The translations under genes and the position numbers were made by a program. Shown piece after piece: positions 1,951 to 34,071 of a stretch of DNA of 64,000 nt (the stretch's first letter is position 1; every line of letters begins with the position of its first letter). This DNA is from an uncultured Bacilli bacterium (lineage in GTDB: Bacteria; Bacillota_I; Bacilli_A; RFN20; CAG-826). Under the pieces are notes generated by a model. The model worked only from the letters and a program-made list of their open reading frames with translations, did not search any database and was not told the DNA's origin. The stretch lies in NCBI GenBank assembly GCA_934699525.1, contig CAKUWP010000004.1, forward strand, positions 42,724 to 106,723, read 5' to 3'.

Positions 1951-2538
1951 CTACAAATAAATCTTAAATGGATTTTCGTCCAACAGTTCCATGCGCCACA
2001 AACGGTAGATTCTATCGCTTGCAATATTGGAATCCCACTCCGTCAGGAAAACCTGGCCGTTGTTAAGGTAAAACGCAAAGATAATGGAGCCGGAGCCCAC
2101 CTGGATTTGGGGTTTGCCGAGAATCGAGACGACCTCCCCAATCGTCATGTCCAATTTCACTTTTTCAGTGTCTTCCGCCGATGGGAGAATCATTCGAAAG
2201 GGGTTGAACCACGTGCCTTTGTCGGAGGGATCGAACACCTTGGAGCGGCCTATCGGGTTTTGCTTCAATAGGCGCGAGGCAAAGACGTTCCACTCCTCCT
2301 CCCCGAAATTTAGCGGAGGCGCGTCGCTCACGCCGAACATAGGCGGAAAAATCGGCTTGGTGGAAGCAGGCGTCACGACAACCGGCTGAGTTTTGTCCAC
2401 CGTCTTCGTTTGCGTCAAGGATTCGTTAAGTGGCTGTCCAAGCTGCGTTTGTGCATCGATTGGATTTTGGGTTTTGCCGACCGCGCTGAAAAAATGGATG
2501 TCGCGACAATGAATGCCTTTAGTCCTAATTGTTTCACT
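1951..2538 (-). pseudogene. frameshifted secreted-protein paralog, chimeric (leader and signal peptide copied from the 788-aa gene, body from the 211-aa paralog)
   Basis: The ORF body (1951..2418, TTG start) is about 75% identical to 2667..3254. The upstream 2473..2590 duplicates 5582..5700 but carries an A6 tract at 2489..2494 where the intact gene has A7 at 5596..5602. Restoring one A fuses a GTG-initiated signal peptide (VKQLGLKAFIVATSIFF...) in frame to the body. Confidence 0.55.
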
Positions 2539-2590
2539 TAATATCCCCTTTGTAGGCTCATTTTTTCATAAAATGTAAGCTCCTTCAATC
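2473..2590. repeat. duplicated promoter/leader plus signal-peptide segment (about 90% identical to 5582..5700)
   Basis: Direct alignment by eye of the two segments. Confidence 0.8.
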
Positions 2591-2666
2591 ACTATGATTA
2601 ATTTAAAAGTCCCGCGAACCAATAAAAATTAGTGTGAGTACGAAACCGACGGAATCGTTGGGGAAA

Positions 2667-3254
2667 TTATGCCTTTGGATGCCTCCTAAATGGATTTTGG
2701 TCAAACAAATCCATATCATACAAGCGATAAATTCTATCGCCTATGAAATGCGAATCCCACCACGTCAGGAAAACCTGGCCGTCGTTGAGGTAAAACGCAT
2801 AGATAATGGCACCGGAGCCCGCCTCAATTTGAGGCTTGCCAAGTATTGAGACGACCTCCCCAATCGTCATGTCCAATTTCACTTTTTCAGTGTCTTCCAC
2901 CGACGGAAGCATCATCCGAAAAGGATCGAACCACGTGCTTTCATCTGATGGATCGAACACCTTGGAGCGGCTTATCGGGTTTTGCTTCAATAGGCGCGAG
3001 GCAAAGACGTTCCACTCCTCCTCCCCGAAATTCAGCGGAGGGACGTCGCTTACGCCGAATAGGGGCGGGAAAATCGGTTTGGTGAAGGTGGGCGTCACGA
3101 CAACCGGCACATGACTGTTATCTATATTAATTTCTGCAAAATCGTCGTTTTCACTAATTGTCGGTTTATCTCCCGTTCCCAAACCTGTCGATGCACTCAA
3201 AAAGATAAACGGAAGAGTTAAAATCAAAGGTAGAAGTTTTTTGATAAATCGCAT
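2667..3254 (-). CDS. secreted protein of unknown function, member of a tandem paralog family
   Basis: The ORF 2667..3302 has a probable true start at MRFIKKLLPLILTLPFIFLSASTG (signal peptide). It is paralogous to 1951..2418. Confidence 0.6.
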   Translation of the reverse strand: MRFIKKLLPLILTLPFIFLSASTGLGTGDKPTISENDDFAEINIDNSHVPVVVTPTFTKPIFPPLFGVSDVPPLNFGEEEWNVFASRLLKQNPISRSKVFDPSDESTWFDPFRMMLPSVEDTEKVKLDMTIGEVVSILGKPQIEAGSGAIIYAFYLNDGQVFLTWWDSHFIGDRIYRLYDMDLFDQNPFRRHPKA

Positions 3255-3277: not shown

Positions 3278-5644
3278 TTAATCGTAGAAAAGATGGTTCC
3301 ACGGAGTCAATGCATAGAAGCCGAGAAAATTAACATACGAGCCTCTATCGCAAAGTTCTGGATCAACAATCAAATTTCCCGATTCATCCGTTCTTCGCAC
3401 TTTGTCCCGGCCCGGCTTGTGAGACCAGTGGCCATTAGAATCTTGACGATACCAGTGATAATCGCGATCGCTAACAGCCAATGCAACTTTGTATGTCCCG
3501 GAGGGTGTTGTGGCATATTTGCCGACTTCTTGGAACATCAAACTCGTTCCAAACTCTTCATTATATTTAGAAAAATCTCGCATTACCGCTTTTTCCAAAA
3601 CGGTTTTAGTGCAAGAAACATATCTTTCTCCACTGTAATCACCAGGCTGCTGCATTTTCCAAAACTCGTTCGTCCCGGGCCACATTTGGTTGTTTAATAT
3701 ATAGGCGTAGCAATTGTTGTTTTCGATATTTCCCAATCGCCACACGCTTGGGTTATATTTCAATTCGTAACCAGAAAGCGGCAAAGGGTCAATTTCATAA
3801 TACGCCAAATCCCCAATGCATATTCTCCCTAAATTGCTATCGGCATTGACAGCAGTATCGTAAATTTCGGAATAAAACCGAACTTTATACGTAGGTCTAT
3901 CCAACCATACCTGATACAGGTTGGGACGGTTTCTATCTCGCGGAAGGCCAGTGGAATCCGCCAAAAGATCCAATTGGGTTACCCATTCCCCTTTATAAAA
4001 GAATTGAATTTCCGCCTTTCCGTTGGTTTTATCCAGCTTTTCTTTTGAAAATTCGCGCCAATGGGAAAGCTGCACGTCGATTCTATTAACGGTTTTTTCA
4101 AAACTATATTCGATGAACGCATGATCAAACCCCTTTCGTCTCGGCGAAAGCACAATATATTCATTGTGGATATATCCCGCGCGATATCTTCTTGTTTTGA
4201 AAGAACCCCCATTTCTCGTTTGGTGTTCCGTAAAAGTTGTGGCCGTCGCTTCATCGCTGGGGTAAGCGTCCTCATAGCCGTATTCAGCGGGCTTAATATA
4301 CGGCGTTCTTTCGTAATCGACGGGCTTATTGAATTCCCTTCTGCACCAATAACCGTCAAATCCTAGCGTATCCGACGAAGCCTGAATTTCTAAAAACACG
4401 TTATACGTTTTTCCTTTGGTTTCGAATCTAGCTGAATCCCACAATTCTTGCGTCAGCGTATATTCCGTGGAATTAATGCCATAGGCAAAGTTTTTGCGGA
4501 CTCTATCACAATCCAAAATAGAAAGTTTGGTACGAATAAAATAGTTTGAAAACCACTTTTCATTATATAAAGACATCCAACGGAACGTAGGCAAAGCATC
4601 ATTGAAATTCCCTTGCACCAGTTCAATTTCTCTGGGGTACACATAACTGCAAGCGCATAAATTATCACCAAGAGAAGAATGATAATGAAACGCATGGGAA
4701 TGAGAAAAACTAGGCTTAATATCGAGATAAGTTATATCCAGAAGATTATTGTAAGGGAGTTTGGATAACGCAACATGGGTCAACGCAACATTCCTTGTTT
4801 CATCTCGCCAACCGGTATGAACATAGATTTCGTCAGCGTTTTCATCGTAATCATAAGCAATCATGCTATGGCAGGTATTCGTTGTGGGTTCCTTAGCCCG
4901 TAGAATGACGGGCACCCCATCCTTAATTTGTCTAACGACGGCCTCGCGCATTAATTGCTCGTCTTCATTAAAATAGGATTGAACCGTCGCTTTTTGATCT
5001 GAAATATGTGCGTAAGAATTTAAATAAGTCGAGAGCACGTTAGACAATTCCGTTCGATTTAGACCGAGCGAATCACTACTTCCGTCAAATTTGTTGTCTC
5101 CAAAAAGCGATTTGGCAATTTCGATTAATTTAAACTGGAAATACGTGTCGGAATGCAGCGAAACAACTCCGTAATAGTCCTGAATGGAAAGTCCATCAAC
5201 CAACTGCCCGGATTCAAACAACACCCCCGGAGATTCGATGGCGGAGGGGATCAAATCGAAATCCGCCAGATATTGACGGTTCGATTGAAATTCTGAACCG
5301 GCATCATATCTATTATCGATAAAAGCATCATCCCAGTAAGAATCATAAAAAGATAAGAGCATCCCCATAGAAACATAGGAACATGTGCCATGAGAATTAT
5401 TCCCAAAATTAGAATTCAGGTTATCGAAATAATAGCTAGAGTAATGATTGGTTAAGTAGATGGGGGAAGGCGACTCGGTGGACAGCGTATCAAACAAATT
5501 GTCCACATCCGTTTCACCCCTATGGGCAAAGGATAAGCTTTCTATTTTATTCGTTTTTGCAACGATGTGATTCGGCACGTTGCCAACCGCGCCGAAAAAA
5601 ATGGATGTCGCGACAATGAACGCCTTTAGCCCTAATTGCTTCAT
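3278..5644 (-). CDS. large secreted protein with putative C-terminal papain-like cysteine peptidase-like domain
   Basis: 788 aa with a signal peptide MKQLGLKAFIVATSIFFGAVG. The C-terminus has a Cys...His...Asp arrangement (NNCYAY...DYHWYRQD...D) reminiscent of NlpC/P60 or CHAP-like folds. The domain call is inference. Confidence 0.5.
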   Translation of the reverse strand: MKQLGLKAFIVATSIFFGAVGNVPNHIVAKTNKIESLSFAHRGETDVDNLFDTLSTESPSPIYLTNHYSSYYFDNLNSNFGNNSHGTCSYVSMGMLLSFYDSYWDDAFIDNRYDAGSEFQSNRQYLADFDLIPSAIESPGVLFESGQLVDGLSIQDYYGVVSLHSDTYFQFKLIEIAKSLFGDNKFDGSSDSLGLNRTELSNVLSTYLNSYAHISDQKATVQSYFNEDEQLMREAVVRQIKDGVPVILRAKEPTTNTCHSMIAYDYDENADEIYVHTGWRDETRNVALTHVALSKLPYNNLLDITYLDIKPSFSHSHAFHYHSSLGDNLCACSYVYPREIELVQGNFNDALPTFRWMSLYNEKWFSNYFIRTKLSILDCDRVRKNFAYGINSTEYTLTQELWDSARFETKGKTYNVFLEIQASSDTLGFDGYWCRREFNKPVDYERTPYIKPAEYGYEDAYPSDEATATTFTEHQTRNGGSFKTRRYRAGYIHNEYIVLSPRRKGFDHAFIEYSFEKTVNRIDVQLSHWREFSKEKLDKTNGKAEIQFFYKGEWVTQLDLLADSTGLPRDRNRPNLYQVWLDRPTYKVRFYSEIYDTAVNADSNLGRICIGDLAYYEIDPLPLSGYELKYNPSVWRLGNIENNNCYAYILNNQMWPGTNEFWKMQQPGDYSGERYVSCTKTVLEKAVMRDFSKYNEEFGTSLMFQEVGKYATTPSGTYKVALAVSDRDYHWYRQDSNGHWSHKPGRDKVRRTDESGNLIVDPELCDRGSYVNFLGFYALTPWNHLFYD

Positions 5645-5748
5645 TTAATGTCCCCTTTTATAGGCTCATTTTTACATAAAATGTAAGCGCTTTCAACTTA
5701 AGAGTGAGCCACGAATGGGCATACGAATGATACTTGTGCAGTGCGTTT

Positions 5749-7050
5749 TTAATCTTTCAACGCCGTTACAGGAATAATATACACGCCCTCAGCATTTTTA
5801 TAAGCGGCGTTACCTACCCCATAGATAACGCATTTGATAATGGGCTCTTTGCCCCCGTTAGCAACAATTTCATTGCAGACTTTCACGAGATTTTTCGACC
5901 CTTCTTCTGCTTTTGCTAGACCCAGTTTGATTTCAATGGCGCACCAATTGCCATCAACCAGTTCAATCACGGCATCGATCTCATTGTTTTTATAGTCCTG
6001 GTAATGAAACAACTTGCCTCCCATGGCTTGTGCATAAATGGATAAATCCCGTTCCACCAATGCTTCGAACATAAACCCAAACGTGTTCAAATCCCCCATC
6101 ATTTTCTTTGGGGTAAGTCCAAGCATAGCACAAGCCATTGCCGGATCCGAAAAATGCCTCTTTTCCATTTGCTTCACGCGAAGTGAGGAACGCAAGTTCG
6201 TCGAAAAGGGTTCTTGGCTGTTTAACAGGAACATCCGTTCAAAAGCATTTAGATATTTTGTAAGCGTGTTTTTGCTGACGGAAGAGGCATCGTTTTCCTC
6301 GATGTCTTTTAAAATGCTTTGATTTGAGACAGTCGTAGATTCATTTCTAGCCAAAGATTTTAGAATTAATTTTGCTTTATGTTCGTCATACTCCTGCCCA
6401 TCTCCCAACCGTTTTAAGTCATTTTTAATAACGTTTTCCATATAGCCAAGAGAAAGTTCGTTACATTCCTCCGAGCCTACGGACAAATTGCCGGGCCATC
6501 CACCCCGAGCAATAAGATAGGCAAGACACTCCAAACTCGTTTGTTCATAAATTTTTGGGGTAAATTTATTTTCACATAAATCTTTTAGGGAGATATCACC
6601 GCTAGAATCCCCCGATTCATAGAGCGACATCGTATTCATCCGAATGCTTTTAATCCTGCCAACCCCACTATGCAAAACACCTTTAAGCACAGGCGTCGAT
6701 GAGCCCGTTAGGATGATCTGCCCTTTTTTACCGCTAGAATCTACGAATGCCCGTGTCGCATCCCAAAGAGAAGGAACTTCTTGCCATTCGTCAATCAGGC
6801 GAGGCGCATCGCCCTTCAAAACGATATAGGGTTCAATTTCGGCTAAAGTGCGATTGGAGAAATTCCCACTAGGATCCCCGACAAGGAATTCGCTGTTTGC
6901 GTGATAGGAAGATGTCCATGTTTTTCCACACCATTTGGGACCTTCGATGCAAACGGCTCCAAAAATTTTTAGGTCCCTATCAATAATGGAATCCACGACT
7001 CTTGCTTTGTAGTGGAGCTTATTCACGATTTTCCCCATAGAATCCCCCAT
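5749..7050 (-). CDS. AAA+ superfamily ATPase, DUF4143/COG1373 family
   Basis: 433 aa with a Walker A-like GPKWCGKTWT. It is a clear paralog of 32765..34039 and more distantly of 31387..32652. Confidence 0.8.
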   Translation of the reverse strand: MGDSMGKIVNKLHYKARVVDSIIDRDLKIFGAVCIEGPKWCGKTWTSSYHANSEFLVGDPSGNFSNRTLAEIEPYIVLKGDAPRLIDEWQEVPSLWDATRAFVDSSGKKGQIILTGSSTPVLKGVLHSGVGRIKSIRMNTMSLYESGDSSGDISLKDLCENKFTPKIYEQTSLECLAYLIARGGWPGNLSVGSEECNELSLGYMENVIKNDLKRLGDGQEYDEHKAKLILKSLARNESTTVSNQSILKDIEENDASSVSKNTLTKYLNAFERMFLLNSQEPFSTNLRSSLRVKQMEKRHFSDPAMACAMLGLTPKKMMGDLNTFGFMFEALVERDLSIYAQAMGGKLFHYQDYKNNEIDAVIELVDGNWCAIEIKLGLAKAEEGSKNLVKVCNEIVANGGKEPIIKCVIYGVGNAAYKNAEGVYIIPVTALKD

Positions 7051-7083
7051 TTTCGGTTAATAAATTCAAGGTTAATGTAGAGC

Positions 7084-7175
7084 ATTGACCCATATTTGTC
7101 AATTCTATTGACCCATATTTTTAGTTTTCATTGACCCGTTTTTTCGGTTTTGATTGACCAAGATTTTAGATTGAG
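7084..7175. repeat. 4 tandem 23-bp direct repeats (ATTGACCCATATTT...) in the divergent promoter region
   Basis: The ATTGACC box recurs at 7084, 7107, 7130 and 7153, an exact 23-bp period. Confidence 0.85.
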
Positions 7176-7330
7176 GGGATAGAAATTATGCCTTTTAGAT
7201 GTAGGAGGAGTTGAATTTGTACACTGTGCATATAAACTCGCCTAAATTCGGTATCTTATTATTGATTTCTTTGATAGAATCCCACTAGTTTTCTCAAATC
7301 GTTGGCTGAAAACAAAAAATAAGGAGATTT

Positions 7331-8335
7331 ATGGACAACGACAAAAAACAAGCAAGAGCCGCCAGGCTCAAGAAAATGTTCGCGCCCGGTCCTGAAGCGA
7401 TGGATTATCGCGTCACGCCGCTGCTCGACACGATCTTAAAATGGTTGATGTTCACGGTGACCATTCTAGGGGTATCCGTCATAACGTCGAAATTCCAAGC
7501 GTACGGCAACATTCCGTTCAACATCCTCTGCGGCATCGTCGTCTTAATCGCGATGAAGCCCGTCTTCTTCGAAGCACTGAAACTATCCACCTTACTCGTT
7601 GGCAGAATCATTGTATTGTTCGCATGCTTCGGCTTACTCCCCGGACCCGTGTTCGTCGTCATCGTCTTGGGTCTTTACATCATCAACATCCTAGAAGCGA
7701 CCATGACGGACTTTTTCAAGAACAAGCAATATTTCAACGGCGTTTCCGGTTTATTTATTGCTATCGGCGCGAGTGCCTTCTTCCTCGGCTCCACCTGGGG
7801 AAACACTGCTACCGCCAATTCGCCCATCTATTACATCGACGGCTTCTCCAAGCTTGGTTCCCAAGTGAACTTCACTTCTTCTTACATCACCAACCAAGCC
7901 AATATCTTCAATAGCAACATCACGAGCACCACGACCGTTGGCCTTGCCATCACCGTTGCCATGATCATTGCCTACACCATCTGGAACTGGCTCTTCGTCA
8001 TCGGCGAATTCTCTTCTTCCGTTGGTTTGATGCACGTCGGGTTCTTGCTCGCCCCGATTATCGGCGTCTTTGTCGGACCCCTCGTTGGTATGGGACGCTT
8101 CGGCATGCTCCCCGACCCGGGACTTTGGTTACTCTTCCGCGCGAGCACCCTCACCTTCGGCGGAATCCTCCAAATCGGCTGCAAGAGATGGTTCGAAGAG
8201 AACTTCATGTTCGAACCCTTTGACCGTAAAGTTCAGCACATCAAAAACAGCAAACCCATTCAAATCACCTGCATGATTATCTGCTGTTCCTTGATGATCT
8301 TCGCCGTCGTCGCTGGCTTCATGCCCGCGATGTAA
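7331..8335 (+). CDS. integral membrane protein, unknown function
   Basis: 334 aa with multiple TM segments. The start lies 8 nt after an AAGGAG Shine-Dalgarno motif (7319..7324). Confidence 0.65.
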   Translation: MDNDKKQARAARLKKMFAPGPEAMDYRVTPLLDTILKWLMFTVTILGVSVITSKFQAYGNIPFNILCGIVVLIAMKPVFFEALKLSTLLVGRIIVLFACFGLLPGPVFVVIVLGLYIINILEATMTDFFKNKQYFNGVSGLFIAIGASAFFLGSTWGNTATANSPIYYIDGFSKLGSQVNFTSSYITNQANIFNSNITSTTTVGLAITVAMIIAYTIWNWLFVIGEFSSSVGLMHVGFLLAPIIGVFVGPLVGMGRFGMLPDPGLWLLFRASTLTFGGILQIGCKRWFEENFMFEPFDRKVQHIKNSKPIQITCMIICCSLMIFAVVAGFMPAM

Positions 8336-8360
8336 TTAGCAAAAACCAATGCGGAAAACT

Positions 8361-8392
8361 GCCACGGCTCAGCTCGTGGCGGTTTTTATTTT
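8361..8392 (+). terminator. rho-independent terminator
   Basis: GCCACG/CGTGGC stem with an 8-nt loop, followed by TTTTTATTTT. Confidence 0.55.
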
Positions 8393-8461
8393 AAAATGCC
8401 AGTAATCATCGATATTATTGGTTGAGCATGGAACGTTAAAAACAAAGAACGCTCAGCTGCC

Positions 8462-8576
8462 GTTACAAACATTTGTGGTGTTTTGTTGCAATGATTTGCG
8501 GCATTTCGTTGCAAACATTTGCGGTGTTTTACTTCCAACTTTTGTGGTGGTTCATTTTACGTTTTCGTGGTACTGG
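8462..8576. repeat. 5 tandem 23-bp direct repeats (GTTGCAAACATTTGCGGTGTTTT), degenerating toward the 3' side
   Basis: Units at 8462, 8485, 8508, 8531 and 8554. They lie between two convergent genes. Confidence 0.8.
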
Positions 8577-8634
8577 AAAACGAGCTGCAAAGGCACTCGC
8601 CCACTCTTCTTGGTTGCAGTTATGGAATATAACC

Positions 8635-9486
8635 TTACTTCAAAAGCCCTTTTGAAGCATTTAATTTCACGATGGGTTCGACCTTGGCTTCGTCTAAGAA
8701 GTCACGCATGATGACGTTAATGTCGGAAAAATAGTCTTGCTGAGGCAAATTCTCAATAAAGGTGTTCATATTCGCTTCGTGGCCCCTTTCGCGATGATAA
8801 GGGCCGAATACGAGCTTTGAATCCGTGAGCTGGCATTGCCAAACAAAGATGCCTTTATGCCCTTCTTCTTCCTTCTTGGCTTGGATTTTATCCATGTAAT
8901 AGCCCAAGGCTTCATTGATAAATTGTTTCGATTTCATCGCGTGATACGAAGAAATATAGCAGGAATCCAAGGCCTGGCCTTTTTGGGTGCAGGCATCGTT
9001 ATTCCTGCTGAAGATATGGGCCTCTTTAACAAACGGGGAATCATCTCCAAAGAAAACAATGCATTTTCCTCTTGTGTCTTTAAGACGAAGTTCATCGACG
9101 AAGGCCAATTCGCTTTGATCATCGTTTTGAACAACGAGACGGTCTTTTAGTTTCTTCGAGACCGTGTGATAGACGTATTCATCGCTTCCGTTTTTAAAGT
9201 GCTGAAAATCCAAAAGGAGAGTTTCGCTGGGGTTTTCTACAATAAACGAAGCGATATCATCCAATATGGGATCGAACCGAATTCCGTTGATGATTGAATG
9301 GTAAATCACATAGTCATTTTTGACGTGATTGACCCGCAAATCAAAATAACGGACTCCCAAATTCAGTTGTTCCTTCACGCTTAAATGTTGAGTCTTGCCT
9401 AGCCAGCTCATTCCATTGGTTCCGGCATCGTGGCTACCGGGCAAAACAATTTCATTTAAGCGGGCTTCATCATCGATGGTACCCAT
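8635..9486 (-). CDS. phosphatidylinositol-specific phospholipase C X-domain (PI-PLC-like) phosphodiesterase
   Basis: 283 aa with LPGSHDAGT, matching the PI-PLC X-domain signature. Confidence 0.7.
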   Translation of the reverse strand: MGTIDDEARLNEIVLPGSHDAGTNGMSWLGKTQHLSVKEQLNLGVRYFDLRVNHVKNDYVIYHSIINGIRFDPILDDIASFIVENPSETLLLDFQHFKNGSDEYVYHTVSKKLKDRLVVQNDDQSELAFVDELRLKDTRGKCIVFFGDDSPFVKEAHIFSRNNDACTQKGQALDSCYISSYHAMKSKQFINEALGYYMDKIQAKKEEEGHKGIFVWQCQLTDSKLVFGPYHRERGHEANMNTFIENLPQQDYFSDINVIMRDFLDEAKVEPIVKLNASKGLLK

Positions 9487-11847: not shown

Positions 11848-12744
11848 ATGAGTGAATTCATAAGCGTCAAAGAAGCGTCCATTCAATGGAATCTATCGGA
11901 AAGAACCGTCCGGAACTATTGCTCTCTTGGGAGAGTACATGGGGCGATTTTAGTTGGCAAAACATGGAAAATTCCCGCGGGAGCAAAGAAACCGATCCGA
12001 ACCAACGAAAAAGAAGGGAAAAACTATCTTTTGGAGAGGCTGCGCTTAGAAAAGAAAAATCAAATCAAAGGCGGCATCTACCATAAACTGATGATTGACC
12101 TCACCTTCAACTCCAATCACATGGAAGGCAATGAACTCACTCACGATGAGACGAGGTACATCTTTGAAACGAAAACGATAGGAATCGAAAAGAATACCAG
12201 CAAAAAAGTAGACGATATCGTAGAAACGATGAATCATTTTGCCGCCATCGATCGCGTCATTGATTTTGCTAACTATCCATTAAGCGAAACTTTTATCAAA
12301 GAATTACACAAAATACTTAAATCGAATACTAGCGATTCTAGGCTCCCTTATTTCGCCGTTGGCGATTATAAGAAGATGCCCAATGAAGTTGGCGGTTTGG
12401 AAACGACTCACCCAAGGCTTGTGGGGTCCGAAATGAAGAAACTTCTTAGCCAATATAACAAAAAGGAAAGCCATTCTTTGGAAGAAATCGTGGAATTTCA
12501 TGTCCAATTTGAAAGGATTCACCCCTTTCAAGACGGAAACGGAAGGGTGGGCCGCTTAATCGCATTCAAAGAATGCCTAAAGAACAACCTGGTTCCCTTT
12601 ATTATTTTCGACGATAAGAAGGTTTTCTATTATCGGGGCTTAAAGAATTGGGATCAAGAACACGGTTGGCTTATGGACACCTGTTTGGAGGGACAAGATA
12701 TCGTTAAGACGTATTTGGATTATTTCAATATTGCCTATCGATAA
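11848..12744 (+). CDS. Fic family protein (HTH plus Fic domain)
   Basis: 298 aa with the canonical Fic motif HPFQDGNGRVGR and an N-terminal HTH. Confidence 0.85.
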   Translation: MSEFISVKEASIQWNLSERTVRNYCSLGRVHGAILVGKTWKIPAGAKKPIRTNEKEGKNYLLERLRLEKKNQIKGGIYHKLMIDLTFNSNHMEGNELTHDETRYIFETKTIGIEKNTSKKVDDIVETMNHFAAIDRVIDFANYPLSETFIKELHKILKSNTSDSRLPYFAVGDYKKMPNEVGGLETTHPRLVGSEMKKLLSQYNKKESHSLEEIVEFHVQFERIHPFQDGNGRVGRLIAFKECLKNNLVPFIIFDDKKVFYYRGLKNWDQEHGWLMDTCLEGQDIVKTYLDYFNIAYR

Positions 12745-12802
12745 AATCAAAGCCCATAAAAGAAAAAAGTACTGACTTTGGCATCAATACTTTCGTTTTT
12801 AT

Positions 12803-12835
12803 TGGCGCCGGGACGGATTCGAATCGGCGAGGCAC
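12803..12835 (-). repeat. degenerate partial copy of the tRNA-Arg 3' end (T-arm and acceptor), a candidate attachment-site direct repeat
   Basis: tggcgccgggacggattcgaatcggcgagg versus the tRNA 3' end tggcgcgccgggacggattcgaaccggcgacc at 14983. The copy has A in place of the G53:C61 T-stem pair of the tRNA. Confidence 0.6.
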
Positions 12836-13391
12836 GTATCGCGATGGGGACAATTCCCATTCGCTTTCGGTATCGGAGTTCGACTTGGAAAGCGAGAGGC
12901 CGCCTCCAGCGAGCATGGGAACAGGCGAAAGAGCAGGGGCGGGGAACGCAAAAAGAAAGGCTGAAAGCCCCTCGTGGAAGCTGGGGCGAAACCACCCATG
13001 AAAAAATGGTGATTTCAAACAAGAAATACCACGGGAAACAAATAACGTCATAGCGACGCGTAGAATGGTACGAAAACAAGGTTCCATGGATACCTAATTA
13101 CCGCCCAACGAAATGAACCAAAGACGACAAACAGTGAAGCTTGAATAGCAGCTACGGCCAAAACCTCTGCGATAACGAGATCATTTAATTCTTTTTAAAT
13201 GATTGTATCCAAGCGATGCCGAATTTTTGATATTGCGCCATGGGTGCCATGGTTTGTTCTTTCACGCCTTCGCCTATCGTTCATTATTCATTGGTTTCGC
13301 GCGGAGGGTTTGGATGCCAAATGTCATGGAAAGCATTCCCACCAATGTGACAATGAAATAATCCAGTCAAAACTACAGCATAAGTTCGGTA

Positions 13392-14726
13392 TTATTTTAG
13401 AACCTCCCAATGGCCGCCTTTATCGGGGCCAACACGTTTTATCAGTCCTTCTTCCTGCAATTTATTTAGATGATGTCTAACGCTACCCTCGGTCACATTT
13501 AGCAATAACATCAAATCCTTTCTAGAGAGCATTCCATTACTACTTAATAATTCCATAATCGATTCTCTAATTTTTTCTGGCAGTTTTCTGTCACTGGTTC
13601 TGGTTGTTTTATTAAATCCTTGTCTATTGAACGGTATTACAACATCAATGTAAAAATCTGTGAAAATATACGCATCATCCCCATAAGCCTTCACCACCGA
13701 CGGAACTCCATGTCCGCTTTCTTCCGCAAAATTGCACGCTCTAAAGATATCAAATAGCTGTTTGTTTACCGGCTCGCTTTTCCCTTTTAGAAATTGTTCT
13801 TTGGTTAAAGCCCTAGGAATACCTCCAAACGACTCTATTTCTAATCTGTCATTGAAAACATAAATACCCGGATGATTGCTCTCGCTCCATTTATTGTGGA
13901 CGCAGGCATTGATCCAGGCTTGTTCAAAAGCCTCGGTATCAAACATTTTAAGTTCTTTTCTCGGCGTCGTATCTAAATTAACAAAAGTCTGATTAATGGA
14001 ATTGATATAATTTTTGGCCTGTTCCATAGCAAGCAAAAGGCATTTGCCACCAAATTCTTCTCTTTTAAGATACTCCGTTTTATCGGAGGATGAGAAAGTT
14101 GCCACATTAATTACAATGTCATTGGTGTCAGCTAAAATTTCCGCCAAATAATTATATTCGCCGTCTTTCGTAAGCAAATGATAATTATCTAAAAATGTCT
14201 CATCGGAAATATGGTTGTTATTTGATAGCAAATAATTCTTAAGGATTTTAAATGTGAGATGTTTTTTTCTAGAAGGGATATCAATGATGTTGATATCTTT
14301 AATGGTCAAAGATTTGATGAAACGATCCTGTATTTCTTCAGGCAACAAGCTTCTGCATGAAGACCCTATTCTGATATAGCATCCATTCTCAGACAAACCA
14401 TATTTTTTAATGTAAAATAGTTGGTTCCCCTTCTTTATATCAATTCTAATAATGCTTTTTCCTTCTATAGTCTTTCTTTTAGGCGTAACAAAAGAAACAC
14501 ACCTAGGCGAAATTTGATCCGTTACTATATCCGATATCGCTCTGAGAGAATCGTCAATATTTTTAACGCCAATAACATTTCTATTTTTATCTATCCCAAT
14601 ATAAACGGATCCCCCCTCGGTATTCAAAAAGGCAACGATTTCTTTGGGCAATGTATTATTAACAATTTCTTTCAATTCAACCTTATTGTCTTCGTCATCA
14701 AACATAACAATATTCTCTCCAGACAA
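13392..14726 (-). CDS. AlbA_2/Schlafen-like domain ATP-binding protein (COG2865-type putative regulator)
   Basis: 444 aa. The N-terminus (FLNTEGGSVYIGIDKNRNVIGV) is typical of AlbA_2 and the C-terminus has a wHTH. Confidence 0.65.
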   Translation of the reverse strand: MSGENIVMFDDEDNKVELKEIVNNTLPKEIVAFLNTEGGSVYIGIDKNRNVIGVKNIDDSLRAISDIVTDQISPRCVSFVTPKRKTIEGKSIIRIDIKKGNQLFYIKKYGLSENGCYIRIGSSCRSLLPEEIQDRFIKSLTIKDINIIDIPSRKKHLTFKILKNYLLSNNNHISDETFLDNYHLLTKDGEYNYLAEILADTNDIVINVATFSSSDKTEYLKREEFGGKCLLLAMEQAKNYINSINQTFVNLDTTPRKELKMFDTEAFEQAWINACVHNKWSESNHPGIYVFNDRLEIESFGGIPRALTKEQFLKGKSEPVNKQLFDIFRACNFAEESGHGVPSVVKAYGDDAYIFTDFYIDVVIPFNRQGFNKTTRTSDRKLPEKIRESIMELLSSNGMLSRKDLMLLLNVTEGSVRHHLNKLQEEGLIKRVGPDKGGHWEVLK

Positions 14727-14738
14727 TTATATAATATC

Positions 14739-14779
14739 AAAAACAACCAGAAACAACCAGAAAACAACCAGAAAACAAG
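14739..14779. repeat. short tandem repeat (AAACAACCAG x about 3.5)
   Basis: Seen directly in sequence, upstream of the 13392..14726 start. Confidence 0.8.
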
Positions 14780-14982
14780 CAATAAAAATGCAATAACGTT
14801 CATAATAAGCCATACCATGCGTCGAATCGTGTCGACGGATGATTCCGTTTTTAAGACACTCGGCGAAAAATGAACTTCGTCACACTTCTTCCTTTCCAAA
14901 TCCCCCTTAGGGCAAAGCAAGGAAAAAAGACGATAAAACCAAAAAAACTCCGATATTTTACATATCGAAGTCTTTTTTCATT

Positions 14983-15059
14983 TGGCGCGCCGGGACGGAT
15001 TCGAACCGGCGACCGCGAGTTTCGAAGACTCGTGCTCTGTCCAGCTGAGCTACCGGCGC
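14983..15059 (-). tRNA. tRNA-Arg (anticodon TCG)
   Basis: Folded by hand into a 77-nt cloverleaf with a 7-bp acceptor stem GCGCCGG/CCGGCGC. It has an anticodon loop CTTCGAA, a TTCGAAT T-loop and an encoded CCA. Confidence 0.85.
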
Positions 15060-15110: not shown

Positions 15111-16526
15111 TTATTGAGCGGTCTTTTCTTGGGGGATAGCATCGAATTTCTTGGTCTTTTTCTTGAAAACGATGACGGTGAAAATCAAAGCGTAGGCGGT
15201 TCCTGCGGCTTCGGAAAGGTAACTTGCCCACCAAATGCCATCGATGCCAAAGAAATAGCCAAATACGAAACCAAAGAGGAATAATCCCGCCAGCAAGCGG
15301 ATGATCGTGGCAATCATCGGATGGACGCCATTGCCAAGTCCTTGGAGGACGCCATTAGAAATGATGCAAAAAGAAGCAATGAGGAAGGTGGGGGGCACGA
15401 TGCACATAAGCTGGACTCCACAATCGATCCATTGTTCATCCAAGTTGAAGGCAAGAAGCAAGGGCTTAGGAATCGCTTCGAAGACGATAACGCCGATTCC
15501 TGCGATAATCAGGCCATAAATATAACCCCACTTCGCCGCGATGAAGGCACGCTCCTTGTTCTTGTTGCCATAATTGAAGGCCACAATCGGAAGCATCGCA
15601 TTCACTAACCCATAAAGTGCCATGAAGACGAAGTTCTGCAGTTTAAAGAAGACGCCATAAACGCCAACGAGCATATCTTGGGTCGGGCCCGCGCCTAACA
15701 AAACCATGAAAAGCAATTGATAGACGAGGGGCTGGAGGCTTTGAAGGGCCTGCAAAGCGATGCTAGGAAGACCAACGCGAAGGATTTTGCCCATCATGGG
15801 GAAATCAAAACGGATGTGTTCTTTCTCAATCCGGATTTCTTTGTTGACGAAGGCCACAAGCAAGAAACCAACAACCATGGATACCATTTGGCCGATGATC
15901 GTGGCGATCGCCGCTCCTTCTACTCCCATTCCCCACACGAGGATGAAAAGGGGATCCAGGGCGATATTCACGACGGCACCCGATAACTGCATGACCATGG
16001 CTAGATTGGTTTTGCCGGTCGCGGCAAGGGAACGTTCGCTAACGAGTTGCAGCAATTGGCCAAAGGAGAAAATGAAGCATAAACCCAAATATTTCGAGCC
16101 CATCTCGATGATGGTTTCATCGCTTGTCACGGAGCTAAAATAGAATTTGCCATAGAAAATCGCTAAGCCAAACGCCAAGAAGGCCACGAAGAAAAATAGC
16201 ATTAACGCATAGCCGTTGATGCAAGCTTTCGCAGCCTTGTCGTTTTTGCCTTGGCCCAAAGCTTTCGACAAAACGGCATTGACTCCAATTCCCGTGCCGA
16301 TTGCCACCGCAACAAGCAAAGTCTGAAGGGGGAAGGCATAGCCCAAAGCCACGATGGCTTGGCTATTGGAAGGGGCGGGCATCATGCCGATGAAGATGCT
16401 ATCGACGATGTTATAGAGGGCGCTCACGACCATCGAAAACATCATGGGGAGAGCCGTTTTCAGCAATAAAGAAGGGATGCGGTCGCTGCTCATGCGTTCG
16501 GCCGAGCTTTTTTTGATTTTCTTCAT
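15111..16526 (-). CDS. MATE family efflux transporter
   Basis: 471 aa with 12 TM segments and typical MATE composition. Confidence 0.85.
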   Translation of the reverse strand: MKKIKKSSAERMSSDRIPSLLLKTALPMMFSMVVSALYNIVDSIFIGMMPAPSNSQAIVALGYAFPLQTLLVAVAIGTGIGVNAVLSKALGQGKNDKAAKACINGYALMLFFFVAFLAFGLAIFYGKFYFSSVTSDETIIEMGSKYLGLCFIFSFGQLLQLVSERSLAATGKTNLAMVMQLSGAVVNIALDPLFILVWGMGVEGAAIATIIGQMVSMVVGFLLVAFVNKEIRIEKEHIRFDFPMMGKILRVGLPSIALQALQSLQPLVYQLLFMVLLGAGPTQDMLVGVYGVFFKLQNFVFMALYGLVNAMLPIVAFNYGNKNKERAFIAAKWGYIYGLIIAGIGVIVFEAIPKPLLLAFNLDEQWIDCGVQLMCIVPPTFLIASFCIISNGVLQGLGNGVHPMIATIIRLLAGLFLFGFVFGYFFGIDGIWWASYLSEAAGTAYALIFTVIVFKKKTKKFDAIPQEKTAQ

Positions 16527-16639
16527 AAAAAAATACCTCGTGGAATGTTCGTTTCACGGGGCGAAAAGTAAGCTATGCTTAGGAAAAGATCCACCGCTAT
16601 TTTCGGCCCTATTTTACGGGGCGAAATGGAAAAATGCAA

Positions 16640-16960
16640 CTAACGATTTTTGGGATGGAATGAAGGCAAATGGTTAGGATGAGTTTTGATTTTTGCCACT
16701 ACTTCTTCGAGTTTTTCTCGGGCTTTTCTTAAATCGATATCCGCTTGAAGGAAGAGGAAATAAGAATCGGAAACTCCAAAATAGGCGCCGAGGCGAATGG
16801 AGGTATCCGCGGTGATCCCGATATGGTTATCGAGGATTCCTCGAATTCGAGAATAGGGGACATCGATATCCTGGGCTAGGCGAAAGGCGGAGACGCCAAA
16901 AGGAACCATAAATTCTCGAAGGAGGATTTCCCCTATCTTTGGCGTCTGAATTTTACCCAT
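16640..16960 (-). CDS. HigA-family XRE-type antitoxin-like HTH protein (orphan)
   Basis: 106 aa with an XRE HTH. No HigB-like partner is visible nearby. Confidence 0.65.
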   Translation of the reverse strand: MGKIQTPKIGEILLREFMVPFGVSAFRLAQDIDVPYSRIRGILDNHIGITADTSIRLGAYFGVSDSYFLFLQADIDLRKAREKLEEVVAKIKTHPNHLPSFHPKNR

Positions 16961-17043
16961 TCCTTTTTTGCCTCCTAAGGCATTTTAGTCTTCTTTATAT
17001 AATAAGGAAAAAGGATTCCAGTACTCCCAGAATCCCTTTTTCG

Positions 17044-17229
17044 TTATTTTTGTTTTTTATAGGTGTCGTGATACATTTCAACCAAGCGATTGCCCTTCTT
17101 CTTTTTGGAAGAGGAGCAGGAACAGCTTTCTAGGCTTTCTCCCCGCTTGATTTTCCTTCCTAGATAAACGCCCATAAATAGAAGGAAGGAAACGATGAAG
17201 ATGATCGTAACGATTTCGGTCCAATGCAT
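17044..17229 (-). CDS. FeoB-associated Cys-rich membrane protein
   Basis: 61 aa with one TM segment and a CSCSSS motif, immediately downstream of feoB. Confidence 0.65.
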   Translation of the reverse strand: MHWTEIVTIIFIVSFLLFMGVYLGRKIKRGESLESCSCSSSKKKKGNRLVEMYHDTYKKQK

Positions 17230-17251
17230 AAGGTTTCCTCCTTTTTAAGAA

Positions 17252-19519
17252 TTAAGCCGCAGCCGCTTCTTTTTTCTTTTTGGCTTTGTCATAGAAATAA
17301 AGCCCAACGAATCCTCCAGCAAGGACCGGGAGAGTGATCGCCAAGGTCCAAACGTATTGGAGGGTGACGTAAGTCAAGCAGCCCATCGCATAGCTAAGGA
17401 TCAGCCAGAAGAGGACGGTGCCGACATAGGCTTTGCCTTTGCCAAGTTCTCCTTTTGCCGCGGCAACCGAAGCAAAGCAAGGAATCGTAAGCATGTTGAA
17501 GACGGCGAAGGCAGCTAGAGCAGCGGGGCTGATACCCATCGAGGCCACAAGGCCTTCGAAGCCGTCTTGGCCAAGGATTTCGGCCAAAGAGGCAACAACC
17601 GAGGTGACGTTTTCTTTGGCGACGATACCTTCTATGGATGCTACCGCCAAAGTCCAGCCATTGGCTCCGGCTTGAGTGCCGAATCCCATCGGGGTGAATA
17701 GGGGTTGGATGAGCATGCCGAGGCTTTGCAGGATCGACCCTTGTCCATCCGCTTCGACCATTTGCCAGTTCCAGGAGAAATTAGCGAGGAACCAGACGAC
17801 GATTGTCGAGGCAAGAATGATCGTGAAGGCTTTTTGGATGAAGTGTTTGCCTTTATCCCAAACGTGGAGAGAAAGGGCGCGGAATTGCGGGGCGTGATAG
17901 GCGGGAAGCTCCATGATGAAGGGAGGGACTTTCTCGCGTTGGGTCGTCTTGTTCATGACGATGACGGAGAAGATGGCAATCACAACGCCAAGGAGGTAGA
18001 GCAAGAAGGTGAATAGCCCAGCATCGAATCCTGCCGAAGCAGCCACGGCAGCGGCGATAACCGCCAAGAATTCGGCTTTGGCTCCGCAGGTGAAGAAGGG
18101 GATGACGCGAAGCGTTTTCACGCGTTCTTTGTCGCTAGCAAGGGTGCGGGTGTTGATCATCGCAGGGACGGCGCAACCAAATCCCATGATCATCGGGATG
18201 AAGGCGCGTCCCGAGACGCCGAAGCGGCGGAACAAACGGTCCAACATGAAGGCCACGCGAGCCATGTAGCCCGAATCCTCCATGAAGGCGAAGAAAGCGA
18301 ATAGCAACATGATTTGGGGAACGAATCCGAGGACGGCCGTAACGCCGGTGATGACACCGTCATAGAAGAATCCCATGACCCAATCCGGGGCGTTGCAGAC
18401 ATACATCAGTTGTTTGAATCCCAAGGCGATGCAGCCGAGGATTCCCGTTTCTTGGTCTCCGGCGAGACGGTGGAGGAATTCTCCGATCGAGACGATGCCC
18501 GCATCGTCATAGAAGAGCCCTTCGAAGGGGTGCACTTCTTCTCCAGCAATCATGAAGGAGATAAATCCGGGATAGGTGTCGAGCTTGAGCCCCATCGCAT
18601 TCATATAGAAGAGGTCACCCGCGAAGGTGAAATGGAACACTAAGAAGAGGAGAGCGACCATGATGAGGGGTCCAAAGACGCGGTGGGTGAGGACCCGGTC
18701 GATCTTATCCGACTTGGATAATTTGTCTTTCTCTTTCTTTTCCTTGCCCGAGACGATTTTCTCGCAGGCGGGGGTAAGAGCTTGGTAACGGAGATCGGCG
18801 ATATCCGCTTCATAGTCTTTTTCTTTGGCTTCGGGAAGCTCTTGGACTTTTTGGTAGCAGTCTTTGTTCTCGATTGCTTCGTGCTCATCCTTTTCAAAGG
18901 CTTTGATCGCGCGGAAGAGGGAATGAGAGATTTCACCCGCTTCATAAATGGCTTTGGCTTTCTCAATCGAGGCATCTTGAATCAAGGTGATTCCTTGTCG
19001 CGAATGCTCGCTTGCTTTTTTCGCTTCGACCATCAAGTCTTCTAGACCCGAATTGCGGAGAGCCGAAATCGGGCAGACAGGGATGCCAAGAAGGTCGCGG
19101 AGGGCTTTGTAATCAATGGAAACCCCATTTTCTTTCAAAGCATCGACCATGTTGACCGCGGCAACGACGGGGACATCCATCTCAAGAATTTGAGTGGTGA
19201 GGTAGAGGTTTCTCTCCAAGTTCGTTCCGTCGATGACGTTAATGATGACATCGGGCTTTTCTTTGAGGATATAGTCCCGAGAAATCACTTCTTCGGGGGT
19301 ATAGGGGGACAAAGAGTAAATGCCCGGAAGGTCGACGATTTCTACGCCTTCCTTCTTCTTTTTGTCTCCTTTGAAATAGAAGGTTCCGCTGCGCTTCTCC
19401 ACCGTGACTCCCGGCCAGTTTCCGACATAAGCCGTCGATCCGGTCAGCGAGTTGAACAACGTGGTTTTGCCGCAGTTAGGGTTGCCGGCTAAGGCAACGC
19501 GAAGGTGCTTATTTTCCAT
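17252..19519 (-). CDS. feoB: ferrous iron transporter FeoB
   Basis: 755 aa with an N-terminal G domain (GNPNCGKTTLFN) and a C-terminal permease. Confidence 0.95.
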   Translation of the reverse strand: MENKHLRVALAGNPNCGKTTLFNSLTGSTAYVGNWPGVTVEKRSGTFYFKGDKKKKEGVEIVDLPGIYSLSPYTPEEVISRDYILKEKPDVIINVIDGTNLERNLYLTTQILEMDVPVVAAVNMVDALKENGVSIDYKALRDLLGIPVCPISALRNSGLEDLMVEAKKASEHSRQGITLIQDASIEKAKAIYEAGEISHSLFRAIKAFEKDEHEAIENKDCYQKVQELPEAKEKDYEADIADLRYQALTPACEKIVSGKEKKEKDKLSKSDKIDRVLTHRVFGPLIMVALLFLVFHFTFAGDLFYMNAMGLKLDTYPGFISFMIAGEEVHPFEGLFYDDAGIVSIGEFLHRLAGDQETGILGCIALGFKQLMYVCNAPDWVMGFFYDGVITGVTAVLGFVPQIMLLFAFFAFMEDSGYMARVAFMLDRLFRRFGVSGRAFIPMIMGFGCAVPAMINTRTLASDKERVKTLRVIPFFTCGAKAEFLAVIAAAVAASAGFDAGLFTFLLYLLGVVIAIFSVIVMNKTTQREKVPPFIMELPAYHAPQFRALSLHVWDKGKHFIQKAFTIILASTIVVWFLANFSWNWQMVEADGQGSILQSLGMLIQPLFTPMGFGTQAGANGWTLAVASIEGIVAKENVTSVVASLAEILGQDGFEGLVASMGISPAALAAFAVFNMLTIPCFASVAAAKGELGKGKAYVGTVLFWLILSYAMGCLTYVTLQYVWTLAITLPVLAGGFVGLYFYDKAKKKKEAAAA

Positions 19520-19820
19520 CTGTTGCTCCTTTCTTTGGCAAATCGGTGATGATGATTTGCACGAATTCCGCTTCCGCGTGGCGAACAGTCAGTTCATAGC
19601 CACGCAAGGTGAGCTCAATGGGGTCTCCTAAAGGCGCCCGTTTGCGAACGAAGAGCTCCGCTCCGGGGGTAAGTCCCATGTCGAAGAGCCGACGACGGAT
19701 TCTTCCTTCTCCTTGGACCGCTTTGATCGTGCCGGAGGTGCCGACATCGACTTGGGCTAGGCTCACGATTTGTCCGACTTGGTAATTCACCACTTCGGAC
19801 CCGTTAAATTCCTTTTCCAT
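19509..19820 (-). CDS. feoA: FeoA family protein
   Basis: 103 aa with an SH3-like FeoA fold signature. Confidence 0.8.
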   Translation of the reverse strand: MEKEFNGSEVVNYQVGQIVSLAQVDVGTSGTIKAVQGEGRIRRRLFDMGLTPGAELFVRKRAPLGDPIELTLRGYELTVRHAEAEFVQIIITDLPKKGATDGK

Positions 19821-19855
19821 GCTTTTCCTTTCTTGTTGATGAATGAGGTGGGGGA

Positions 19856-20092
19856 TTAGGCAACGAGAATATGCCTGGCAACCTCGCGGTTCAAAGCAAG
19901 GCGCGATTCCTTCACAAGAATCACGGTTCCGCTATTTTCTTGGCTAAGAACCATGATTTTGGAATCGCTCACAATTCCAAGGCTTGCAAGGTGACGGGCG
20001 ATCGAAGATTCGCCGCCAACTTTCAGGACCTTGAGTTCTTTCCCACTGGGCGCAAAGCATAATGGCATAGGCAATCCCTCCTTTAACGGCAA
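19856..20092 (-). CDS. feoA: FeoA family protein (second copy)
   Basis: 78 aa, FeoA-like. Confidence 0.75.
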   Translation of the reverse strand: MPLKEGLPMPLCFAPSGKELKVLKVGGESSIARHLASLGIVSDSKIMVLSQENSGTVILVKESRLALNREVARHILVA

Positions 20093-20204
20093 TATGTTAA
20101 TCTACAATAACCTTTGAATACAAGAAAATTGTTAAGATTATTTAACTGAAAGCCTTTTCCTAAGAAAAGATGTCCTTTCTAGGAGGATTTGCTAGAATGG
20201 TTTC

Positions 20205-20618
20205 ATGGAAAAAATCTTACAAATCGCTTCTTTAGCCTCACAAAGCAAGCAGTCGGAAATCGTTTGCCGCATCTTAACCAAACACGGGTATCGCTTGCTT
20301 CCCGTCCATCAAGAAATGGATCCAAATCTAGTAACCTTGGTCTTCTTGACCCCGGGAGTCACTTTGGGCGAACTCTTCGATGCCTTCCCTTGGTTGAAGC
20401 AAGAACACGAACGTTCTTCTTCCCCTTACCTTCGTTTGTTCCCCTTCATTCCCTATCACCCTTCCAGGGAAGATATCGATGACCTTTTCGAAGAGGGGCT
20501 AGGAGAAGTTTACGAAGAACTCTTCTCCGGCGAATTCAAACCCTATGGCTGGGATTTGGATGATGAAAACACCATCCAAGAATTCGAACGGGTCTTGGAA
20601 GAAAATTATTCTTGTTAA
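20205..20618 (+). CDS. hypothetical protein
   Basis: 137-aa ORF with AGGAGG upstream. No recognisable motif. Confidence 0.5.
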   Translation: MEKILQIASLASQSKQSEIVCRILTKHGYRLLPVHQEMDPNLVTLVFLTPGVTLGELFDAFPWLKQEHERSSSPYLRLFPFIPYHPSREDIDDLFEEGLGEVYEELFSGEFKPYGWDLDDENTIQEFERVLEENYSC

Positions 20619-20619
20619 A

Positions 20620-20657
20620 GAAAAAGCGTTCCCTCAAGACGGAAGGAACGCTTTTTT
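20620..20657. terminator. bidirectional rho-independent terminator between convergent genes
   Basis: AGCGTTCC/GGAACGCT stem flanked by an A-run and a T-run. Confidence 0.7.
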
Positions 20658-20662
20658 CATGC

Positions 20663-21007: not shown

Positions 21008-21010
21008 CGA

Positions 21011-23758: not shown

Positions 23759-23770
23759 TGTTGATATCCT

Positions 23771-31302: not shown

Positions 31303-31386
31303 CCTTTGCCCCTTTCCGTATTAAATTTAACACATAAACATAGTTTTTACTATGGTTTCGTGTAATTTTTAATACAACTCAAGACA

Positions 31387-32652: not shown

Positions 32653-32660
32653 TTTCCTCC

Positions 32661-32762: not shown

Positions 32763-32764
32763 CT

Positions 32765-34039: not shown

Positions 34040-34071
34040 AGGAATGCCCCCGATGGCTCAATCATATATTA

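Follow-up and report, generated by a model that had tools for sequence, protein, structure and literature searches.

The 23-bp tandem repeat arrays upstream of two paralogous ATPase genes in the window (the whole stretch of 64,000 nucleotides analyzed here) probably are operators, through which each paralog would negatively regulate its own gene by cooperative occupancy of a cognate set of sites; we infer binding, repression and cooperativity alike from comparison of sequences. A first-pass annotation of this DNA had suggested paralog-specific regulation, possibly autoregulation by the ATPases, and this suggestion is strongly supported by the conservation of the arrays upstream of orthologs, their overlap with predicted promoters, and covariation between the repeated box and the predicted recognition helix of the downstream protein.

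The genes belong to a family that is discussed as phage defense. PDC-S01 is a single-gene defense candidate proposed from its embedding in known systems (Payne et al., bioRxiv 10.1101/2024.01.29.577857). Among prokaryotic "defense" loci, this AAA_14+DUF4143 combination is reported to rank fourth in abundance, and in rumen genomes to be the single locus that occurs most often (PMC12988326, PMC13356809); it has also been called unvalidated (PMC12988326). A tested representative did not protect against T4, T5, or T7 (bioRxiv 10.1101/2024.09.26.614923), and DUF4143 was listed as "unknown" in a 2012 survey of PD-(D/E)XK nucleases (PMC3424549). The literature on DUF4143, COG1373, and PDC-S01, as far as it was covered, which was incompletely, contained no description of upstream repeats, DNA specificity, or regulation, and a literature search on AAA_14/PF13173 returned only noise.

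Arrays in the window

Array 1 (positions 7084–7175, minus strand) consists of four 23-bp units at approximately 7084–7106, 7107–7129, 7130–7152, and 7153–7175, which read AAAAnnnAAAATATGGGTCAATG in gene orientation and share the core GGTCA. Array 2 (34072–34163, minus strand) likewise has four 23-bp units, reading AAAACnGAAAATATCACGGAATG in gene orientation with the core ACGGA. Motif scans located the boxes on the minus strand at 7085, 7108, 7131, and 7154 in array 1 and at 34072, 34095, 34118, and 34141 in array 2, with a spacing of exactly 23 bp in both. TRF reported a period of 23 for each array, with 3.7 copies, 76% matches, and 4% indels at 7083–7167 and 4.1 copies, 77% matches, and 6% indels at 34069–34162. 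The earlier description of "exact" repeats thus applies to the period, kept over four units in each array, and not to the copies themselves, which are about 76–77% alike by TRF. The boxes described at the same time, ATTGACCC for array 1 and TTCCGTG for array 2, and the T-rich half common to both were found on the plus strand. Arrays 1 and 2 end 21–35 bp upstream of the start codon of an AAA_14+DUF4143 gene.

In the whole 64-kb window, TRF detected three period-23 arrays only. The third, orphan array 3 (8461–8552, minus strand), has four 23-bp units, reading AAAACACCGCAAATGTTTGCAACG in gene orientation, and is oriented like array 1; it had been overlooked in the first-pass annotation, as had a third DUF4143 gene (31387–32649). 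Further clusters of the array 1 or array 2 boxes were not found in the window, where lone 8-mer boxes occur at chance frequency. An Rfam search over the window matched a tRNA solely, and the arrays match no known RNA family. A CRISPR-like array was rejected, as the units of arrays 1 and 2 abut without spacers.

Genes 1 and 2 and their products

Gene 1 (5749–7038, minus strand) encodes a 429-aa protein with an AAA_14 domain, a winged helix, and a DUF4143 domain of PD-(D/E)xK type, assigned to PDC-S01 by PADLOC, in which the recognition helix starts with S-K256-N257-T. The gene had been given as 5749–7050; translation most likely begins at the second ATG, position 7038, since the homologs have 429 aa and a GGGGGA ribosome-binding site precedes this codon, the start at 7050 being the less likely possibility. 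Gene 2 (32765–34039, minus strand) encodes a 424-aa paralog with a recognition helix starting N-V-D-T. Both products are AAA_14+DUF4143 proteins and 50% identical, which bears out the earlier statement that the arrays lie directly upstream of two paralogous DUF4143 genes. Together with the product of gene 3 (described below), they match Pfam PF13173 (AAA_14) with 45–73 bits (cut-off 27) and PF13635 (DUF4143) with 102–121 bits (cut-off 28), and the PDC-S01 HMM matched the three window genes with E values of 7e-54, 3e-60, and 2e-91. The Walker A (GxxxxGKT) and Walker B (hhhhDE) motifs are intact, and the PD-(D/E)xK catalytic residues E353, D355, E369, and K371 are invariant in an alignment of 36 sequences. 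No NCBIfam model matched the three window ATPases, and neither Pfam nor NCBIfam (e.g., TIGR02928) gave a match to Rep, Orc, or Cdc6 families.

An AlphaFold2 model of the gene 1 protein, calculated from the alignment of 36 sequences (pLDDT 86.9, pTM 0.88), shows an AAA+ domain, a winged helix, and a C-terminal PD-(D/E)xK domain, in this order. The predicted winged helix comprises helices 219–231, 239–250, and 256–268 and a beta wing, helix 256–268 being the third. The closest Foldseek matches, all weak (E about 1e-5, TM 0.2–0.5), were the uncharacterised archaeal AAA+ ATPases SSO1545 (2fna) and PABY2304 (2qen), STAND NTPases, and Orc1/Cdc6 bound to origin DNA (2qby). A sequence search of the PDB with the gene 1 protein gave nothing significant (top entry 3gaa, E 0.014), and megablast of window positions 5000–9000 against plasmids gave no match.

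Conservation of the arrays upstream of homologous genes

The ortholog set comprised 80 loci, one genome per species, with proteins 53–96% identical to gene 1; the loci, mostly MAGs, come from Bacillota, Bacteroidota, and Fibrobacterota and from a few MAGs labeled as other phyla. Inspection of these upstream regions, proposed with the first-pass annotation as a check, showed that the array is kept: TRF detected a period-23 array within 400 bp upstream in 59 of the 80 orthologs (31 kb in total), and by eye it is present in nearly all, since nearly all TRF-negative loci have at least 2–3 units, whose boxes lie exactly 23 bp apart. The remaining 476 kb of the same loci contain about 10 period-23 arrays, several of which precede further DUF4143 paralogs, which corresponds to a roughly 90-fold enrichment per kb upstream of the orthologs over the rest of the loci. 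Most loci have 3–4 units in register (range 1–7). The arrays usually end 0–75 bp from the start codon according to TRF, and their orientation relative to the gene is constant among the orthologs. The ortholog locus L001 has the same array 1.

Arrays of 23-bp units also precede more distant homologs with 36–42% identity, including plasmid genes of Collinsella and Bacteroides isolates. On plasmid pCaero1 of Collinsella aerofaciens ATCC 25986 (locus L162), an array of AAATCTGGTTAA units lies at 1077–1170, and on a Bacteroides ovatus plasmid (L163), three near-exact AAGCCAAACTGCCGAATAATATT units lie at 1078–1146; these two plasmid genes encode homologs with 38–40% identity. Both plasmids are public isolate records, pCaero1 being a type-strain collection entry, and offer convenient experimental material; suitable proteins are WP_040360137.1 of C. 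aerofaciens ATCC 25986 and WP_032845912.1 of B. ovatus. Among the orthologs, five loci with 73–75% identity to gene 1 (L008, L010, L011, L023, L037) have an alike GGTCA-type array, and orthologs of this type occur in MAGs assigned to Bacteroidota, Fibrobacterota, and Bacillota. The occurrence of the GGTCA-type gene with its array across phyla points to recent joint horizontal transfer or to mis-binned contigs. The conservation of the 23-bp architecture over several phyla appears to be new.

Unit structure and predicted promoters

The sequence of a unit in gene orientation is AAAT-nn-N-[5-nt core]-(A/T)T(G/A) and then an A-rich stretch that varies. The A-tract portion is common to all arrays and the 5-nt core varies among lineages, with GGTCA for gene 1, ACGGA for gene 2, and GCTCA, ACCGA, GCCGA, ACTGA, GCTGA, or TCGGA/G elsewhere. 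In the promoter-proximal unit alone, the A-rich half is altered to a -35-like TTG(A/T/C)nA, and a -10 element, often TGnTATAAT, follows 1–3 nt after the box of this unit. For gene 1, the predicted sigma-70 promoter (7074–7102, minus strand) has the -35 element TTGACA at 7102–7097, a 17-nt spacer containing the GGTCA box, and the -10 element TACATT at 7079–7074. For gene 2, the predicted promoter (34061–34088, minus strand) has TTGAAA at 34088–34083, a 16-nt spacer with the box AACGGAAT, and TATGAT at 34066–34061. An independent promoter scan gave TTGACA-17-TACATT and TTGAAA-16-TATGAT as best matches, exactly over the proximal units. All promoter calls are consensus matches, that is, predicted promoters with predicted transcription starts.

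Among 79 loci, the core lies inside the spacer of a strict sigma-70 match in 46, with an identical offset in 38 of these 46. The other 33 loci failed the strict rule, and most of them have either a degenerate proximal box or an extended -10 element, TGnTAT(A/G)nT, directly behind the last box. The proximal box is located at about -24 to -16 relative to the predicted start. Bacteroidota have a promoter consensus that differs from the sigma-70 type, so that homologs in this phylum must use another type of promoter; the plasmid gene of B. ovatus has a TAnnTTTG-like element after its array, which we take to be a Bacteroidota-type promoter.

As in an operator, the sites overlap the core promoter of the presumed regulator's own gene, judged by consensus-predicted promoters. 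The array precedes the predicted transcription start, and its last unit is within the core promoter; an operator fits this arrangement. The second possibility named in the first-pass annotation, a set of repeated promoter elements, does not, because a TTGnnA -35-like hexamer followed by a -10 element occurs in the promoter-proximal unit only.

Covariation of recognition helix residues with the box

In the ortholog alignment, the columns most strongly associated with box class cluster at residues 191–220 and 240–261, with residue 256 at the top. Of 424 alignment columns, residue 257 was the one most strongly associated with core position 3, and for core position 1 the highest mutual information was that of residue 256; these two residues are the first two of the predicted recognition helix of the winged helix. 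Of the 36 loci with T at core position 3, 34 have N at residue 257; D occurs there in 20 of the 22 loci with C, and E or D in 17 of the 19 with G. At core position 1, G is accompanied by K, R, or Y at residue 256 (30/30 loci) and A mostly by small residues, and the core TCGG is found with V or I at 256. This pattern appears chemically sensible. The relation of D to CCGA extends to homologs with 36–38% identity (B. ovatus plasmid, L011b). Exceptions are L039 (RN with GCCGA/GCGGA) and L072 (ST).

The covariation statistics, calculated without formal phylogenetic correction, are partly confounded with phylogeny, in that core positions 2 and 4 track clades. The residue-core pattern is nevertheless not simply phylogeny, because proteins that are 84–88% identical outside the winged helix differ in core and residue 257 (ACTGA with N257 versus ACCGA with D/E257), core position 3 changed about 14 times on a distance tree, albeit a crude UPGMA tree, and L009 departs from its relatives in core and helix together (GGTTA with KS, the relatives having GGTCA with KN). 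The site sequence is thus coupled to residues that would read DNA in the regulator (256/257 with core positions 1 and 3), as in an operator. This speaks strongly, if indirectly, for recognition of each array by the ATPase encoded next to it. A two-residue specificity code of this kind, in which residues 256/257 would determine the core, appears to be new.

Paralogs, palindromes, orphan and duplicated arrays

Paralogs that share a genome or locus have differing boxes, as seen in the window, in L008, and in L002/L051, which are from one MAG. Gene 3 (31387–32649, minus strand), directly downstream of gene 2, encodes a distant DUF4143 paralog of 420 aa with 21% identity to gene 1. Upstream of it, two imperfect 33-bp palindromes lie 63 bp apart at 32664–32696 and 32727–32759 (minus strand), and the -10 element of the predicted gene 3 promoter, TTGCCA-17-TAAAAT (32716–32688, minus strand), is inside the proximal palindrome. 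These palindromes are the inverted-repeat counterpart of the arrays. In a set of 78 gene 3 relatives from metagenomes, with palindromes scored by consensus and shuffled sequences as control, TRF detected no 23-bp arrays; a palindrome CGACTATAATAAA-N-TTTAGATTAGTCG whose left arm includes TATAAT is present in 70 of the 78 loci and in none of the 78 shuffled controls, and 30 of the relatives have a second palindrome upstream. In a strict inverted-repeat test requiring 9/10 matches, the proximal palindrome escaped detection owing to the change of its left arm to TATAAT. Other distant paralogs, encountered by chance in the loci analyzed, have direct repeats of their own, with 23-bp or longer period, or inverted repeats upstream. 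Taken together, the gene 3 clade, the distant paralogs, and the plasmid genes suggest that a private repeat operator embedded in the promoter is family-wide, the 23-bp array being one widespread form of it.

Array 3 has the motif CC[GA]CAAA[TA] on the minus strand with exact 23-bp spacing and sits between the 3′ ends of two convergent genes, one at 7331–8335 (plus strand, with its own terminator) and a PI-PLC-like gene at 8635–9486 (minus strand). A tblastn search found no DUF4143 gene or pseudogene beside it. The array is conserved in L001, and similar units occur in L032 and upstream of the paralog L011b; judged from these sequences, it could be the relic of a lost paralog or a site bound in trans. 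In L032, the second 23-bp array with similarity to array 3 (TACCGCAAATGTGTCAAGTAAAA, 2803–2878) abuts the proximal array and faces a divergent gene of the sigma-70 family (2152–2718, minus strand), with TTGACA on the opposite strand of each unit.

In L008, a Hallerella MAG, three DUF4143 paralogs lie within 7 kb, each with a different 23-bp array. A GGGTCA array of about 90 bp occurs twice, at 1043–1135, where it is an orphan without a gene, and at 2880–2970. The two copies flank a segment with another DUF4143 gene and its own 23-bp array, and the third paralog follows 1.3 kb downstream. The segment also contains what we take, from its translation, to be an N-terminal fragment of a putative transposase. 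The duplication of the array around this segment suggests array-mediated recombination or cassette insertion.

Genomic neighborhood

By gene content, the context in the window looks like a defense island. Island-like stretches extend over 11848–15059 and 29589–36432. The former contains genes for Fic (11848–12744) and for a Schlafen/AlbA_2-HATPase_c_4-wHTH protein (13392–14726, minus strand) and the tRNA found by Rfam (14986–15059, minus strand). The latter contains AbiEii (29589–30554), AbiEi (30538–31302), and an FtsH/IetA-like AAA+ gene (34230–35528), truncated FtsH-like and matching IetA, which is followed by unannotated ORFs. TRF found further tandem repeats at 49967–50037 (37-bp unit, 1.9 copies) and at 14740–14778 (11-bp unit AAAACAACCAG, 3.6 copies), the latter just upstream of the 13392–14726 gene and about 200 bp from the tRNA. 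The G+C content is 0.48–0.53 at 16000–24000 and about 0.35–0.47 in the rest of the window; this stretch of higher G+C might delimit the island from the core genome.

Proposed mechanism and alternative explanations

In the mechanism that we propose, the array would be a head-to-tail series of binding sites for the winged-helix domain of the AAA+ ATPase/PD-(D/E)xK nuclease encoded next downstream. Each unit would consist of an A-tract and a short box; the residues at the beginning of the recognition helix would read the 5-nt core of the box, and as each paralog would have its own core, cross-talk among paralogs in one cell would be avoided. The proximal unit would form part of a sigma-70-type promoter, its A-rich half providing the -35 element and its box lying in the spacer, and beyond it two to seven more units would be spaced by exactly 23 bp, which corresponds to about 2.2 turns of the helix. 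Protomers on the array, probably several that bind cooperatively, would block RNA polymerase and thereby keep a potentially toxic nuclease at a low level. With regard to the sign of the autoregulation, repression is probable rather than activation.

Autoregulation alone leaves over the orphan arrays (8461–8552 in the window, 1043–1135 in L008) and the duplicated array of L008; simple repression would also need fewer than four to nine sites and does not account for the rigid 23-bp period. These features would be explained if the arrays were loading or assembly platforms for a helical AAA+ oligomer that controls the nuclease, as a self-anchored sensor or effector, or recombination or homing sites for DUF4143 cassettes, in which case autoregulation would be a by-product. 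The clustering of paralogs side by side, the conserved catalytic residues of the nuclease, and the resemblance of the fold to the oligomerising Orc1/Cdc6 and STAND ATPases are consistent with this idea as well. We consider it rather improbable: outside the arrays, the box 8-mers show neither enrichment nor avoidance in the window, and regulation fully explains why the last unit sits so precisely in the predicted promoter. A broader reading, likewise rather improbable, would combine both functions and regard DUF4143/PDC-S01 as a very large, mutually orthogonal set of programmable DNA-binding ATPase-nucleases, whose private 23-bp "address" arrays would serve as operator and assembly platform under the two-residue code. 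Successive sites would then spiral round the helix at 23 bp, or about 2.2 turns, assembly of protomers would gate the nuclease, and orphan or duplicated arrays would be extra loading or recombination sites, so that the family might be a self-anchored sensor or a selfish cassette, not a conventional defense gene.

Negative autoregulation through cognate arrays also has to be weighed against functions unrelated to control of the downstream gene by its own product. Arrays acting as origin iterons, with the ATPase initiating replication of an integrated element or plasmid in the manner of Orc1/Cdc6, would agree with tandem direct repeats adjoining the gene for an AAA+ protein with a winged helix, with the Foldseek match to Orc1/Cdc6 on origin DNA (2qby), and with the plasmid location of some homologs. 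Such a role is very unlikely in view of the three paralogs in 64 kb here and three in 7 kb in L008, all on chromosomal contigs, the lack of any Rep/Orc/Cdc6 family match, the extra PD-(D/E)xK domain, the position of the arrays inside predicted promoters, and the palindromes that replace them in the gene 3 clade. "Iteron-like", as the arrays had first been called, holds for the architecture, in that the four-unit arrays are regularly spaced tandem direct repeats within the range of about 17–23 bp known from iterons and overlap the predicted promoter of the putative binder's own gene; it does not hold for the neighboring gene, which encodes an AAA_14+DUF4143 protein and not a Rep-family initiator, and the setting of paralogs with arrays side by side in chromosomal contigs argues against the origin of an autonomous replicon. 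The A-tract part common to all arrays might indicate that an unlinked transcription factor or nucleoid protein binds the boxes, the ATPase gene being a regulated gene only. The boxes differ, however, between paralogs of one genome, and among proteins that are otherwise nearly identical they change together with two residues in the recognition helix of the ATPase itself; a separate co-evolution would be needed for each paralog, and we assign little credence to this explanation. Chance low-complexity sequence or a dispersed repeat of MITE or REP type without a link to the gene, to which the A/T-richness and the one window array without a neighboring gene could point, is almost certainly not what the arrays represent. 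Three period-23 arrays in 64 kb, with box 8-mers elsewhere at chance frequency, settled the concern about random low-complexity sequence raised at first, and a MITE or REP repeat was ruled out by the roughly 90-fold enrichment upstream of orthologs and the fixed orientation and distance to the start codon.

Novelty and significance

By analogy with the systems discussed below, tandem direct-repeat operators over the binder's own promoter are of a known kind, and the association of such arrays with the AAA_14+DUF4143 ATPase-nuclease family appears to be new. Cognate arrays embedded in promoters, private specificities of paralogs, and two helix residues that predict the box make the family experimentally tractable and offer a first point of experimental access to an uncharacterised candidate phage-defense family that is among the most abundant. 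In defense screens that express the gene from a heterologous promoter, this conserved control element is bypassed. A set of orthogonal operator-repressor pairs could be a further use of the apparent recognition code.

Comparison with known systems

In plasmid P1, the repA promoter lies within the incC iterons, and repA is subject to iteron-mediated autorepression. The arrays described here resemble the P1 RepA iterons as tandem direct repeats of about 20 bp over the promoter of a winged-helix binder's gene, with a specificity private to the element. They differ in that the protein is an AAA+ ATPase fused to a PD-(D/E)xK nuclease and not a Rep initiator, in the period of 23 bp, and in the chromosomal setting with several paralogs side by side. 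Short direct-repeat arrays that are operator and protein-assembly site at the same time are known for ParR/parC of R1 and the omega repressor of pSM19035, both of which bind cooperatively as multiple protomers. Common to the parC repeats, the omega heptads, and the present arrays are in-phase direct repeats across the promoter of the binder's operon; ParR and omega, however, are small ribbon-helix-helix proteins that work with a partner motor in segregation, whereas the putative binder here is an ATPase-nuclease without a partner gene. Archaeal Orc1/Cdc6 binds repeated ORB boxes adjoining its own gene and shares with 2fna, 2qen, and the proteins studied here, as their best Foldseek matches, the succession of an AAA+ module and a winged helix. 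Here, an additional C-terminal nuclease domain is present, a sequence-family match is lacking, and the repeats are tandem, direct, and embedded in a promoter instead of being origin boxes that flank an unwinding element.

With PDC-S01, the likeness is one of membership, as all three window genes match its models and lie amid AbiEi/AbiEii, the IetA-like ATPase, Fic, and Schlafen/AlbA_2; this system has been defined by the protein alone, without a cis-element. The AbiEi antitoxin binds cooperatively to two inverted repeats in the abiE promoter and exerts negative autoregulation. AbiEi belongs to a different protein family and uses inverted, not tandem direct, repeats, but as a winged-helix protein of a defense or toxin module with repeated sites in its own promoter it is comparable to the proteins of the window, and its layout resembles that of the gene 3 clade.
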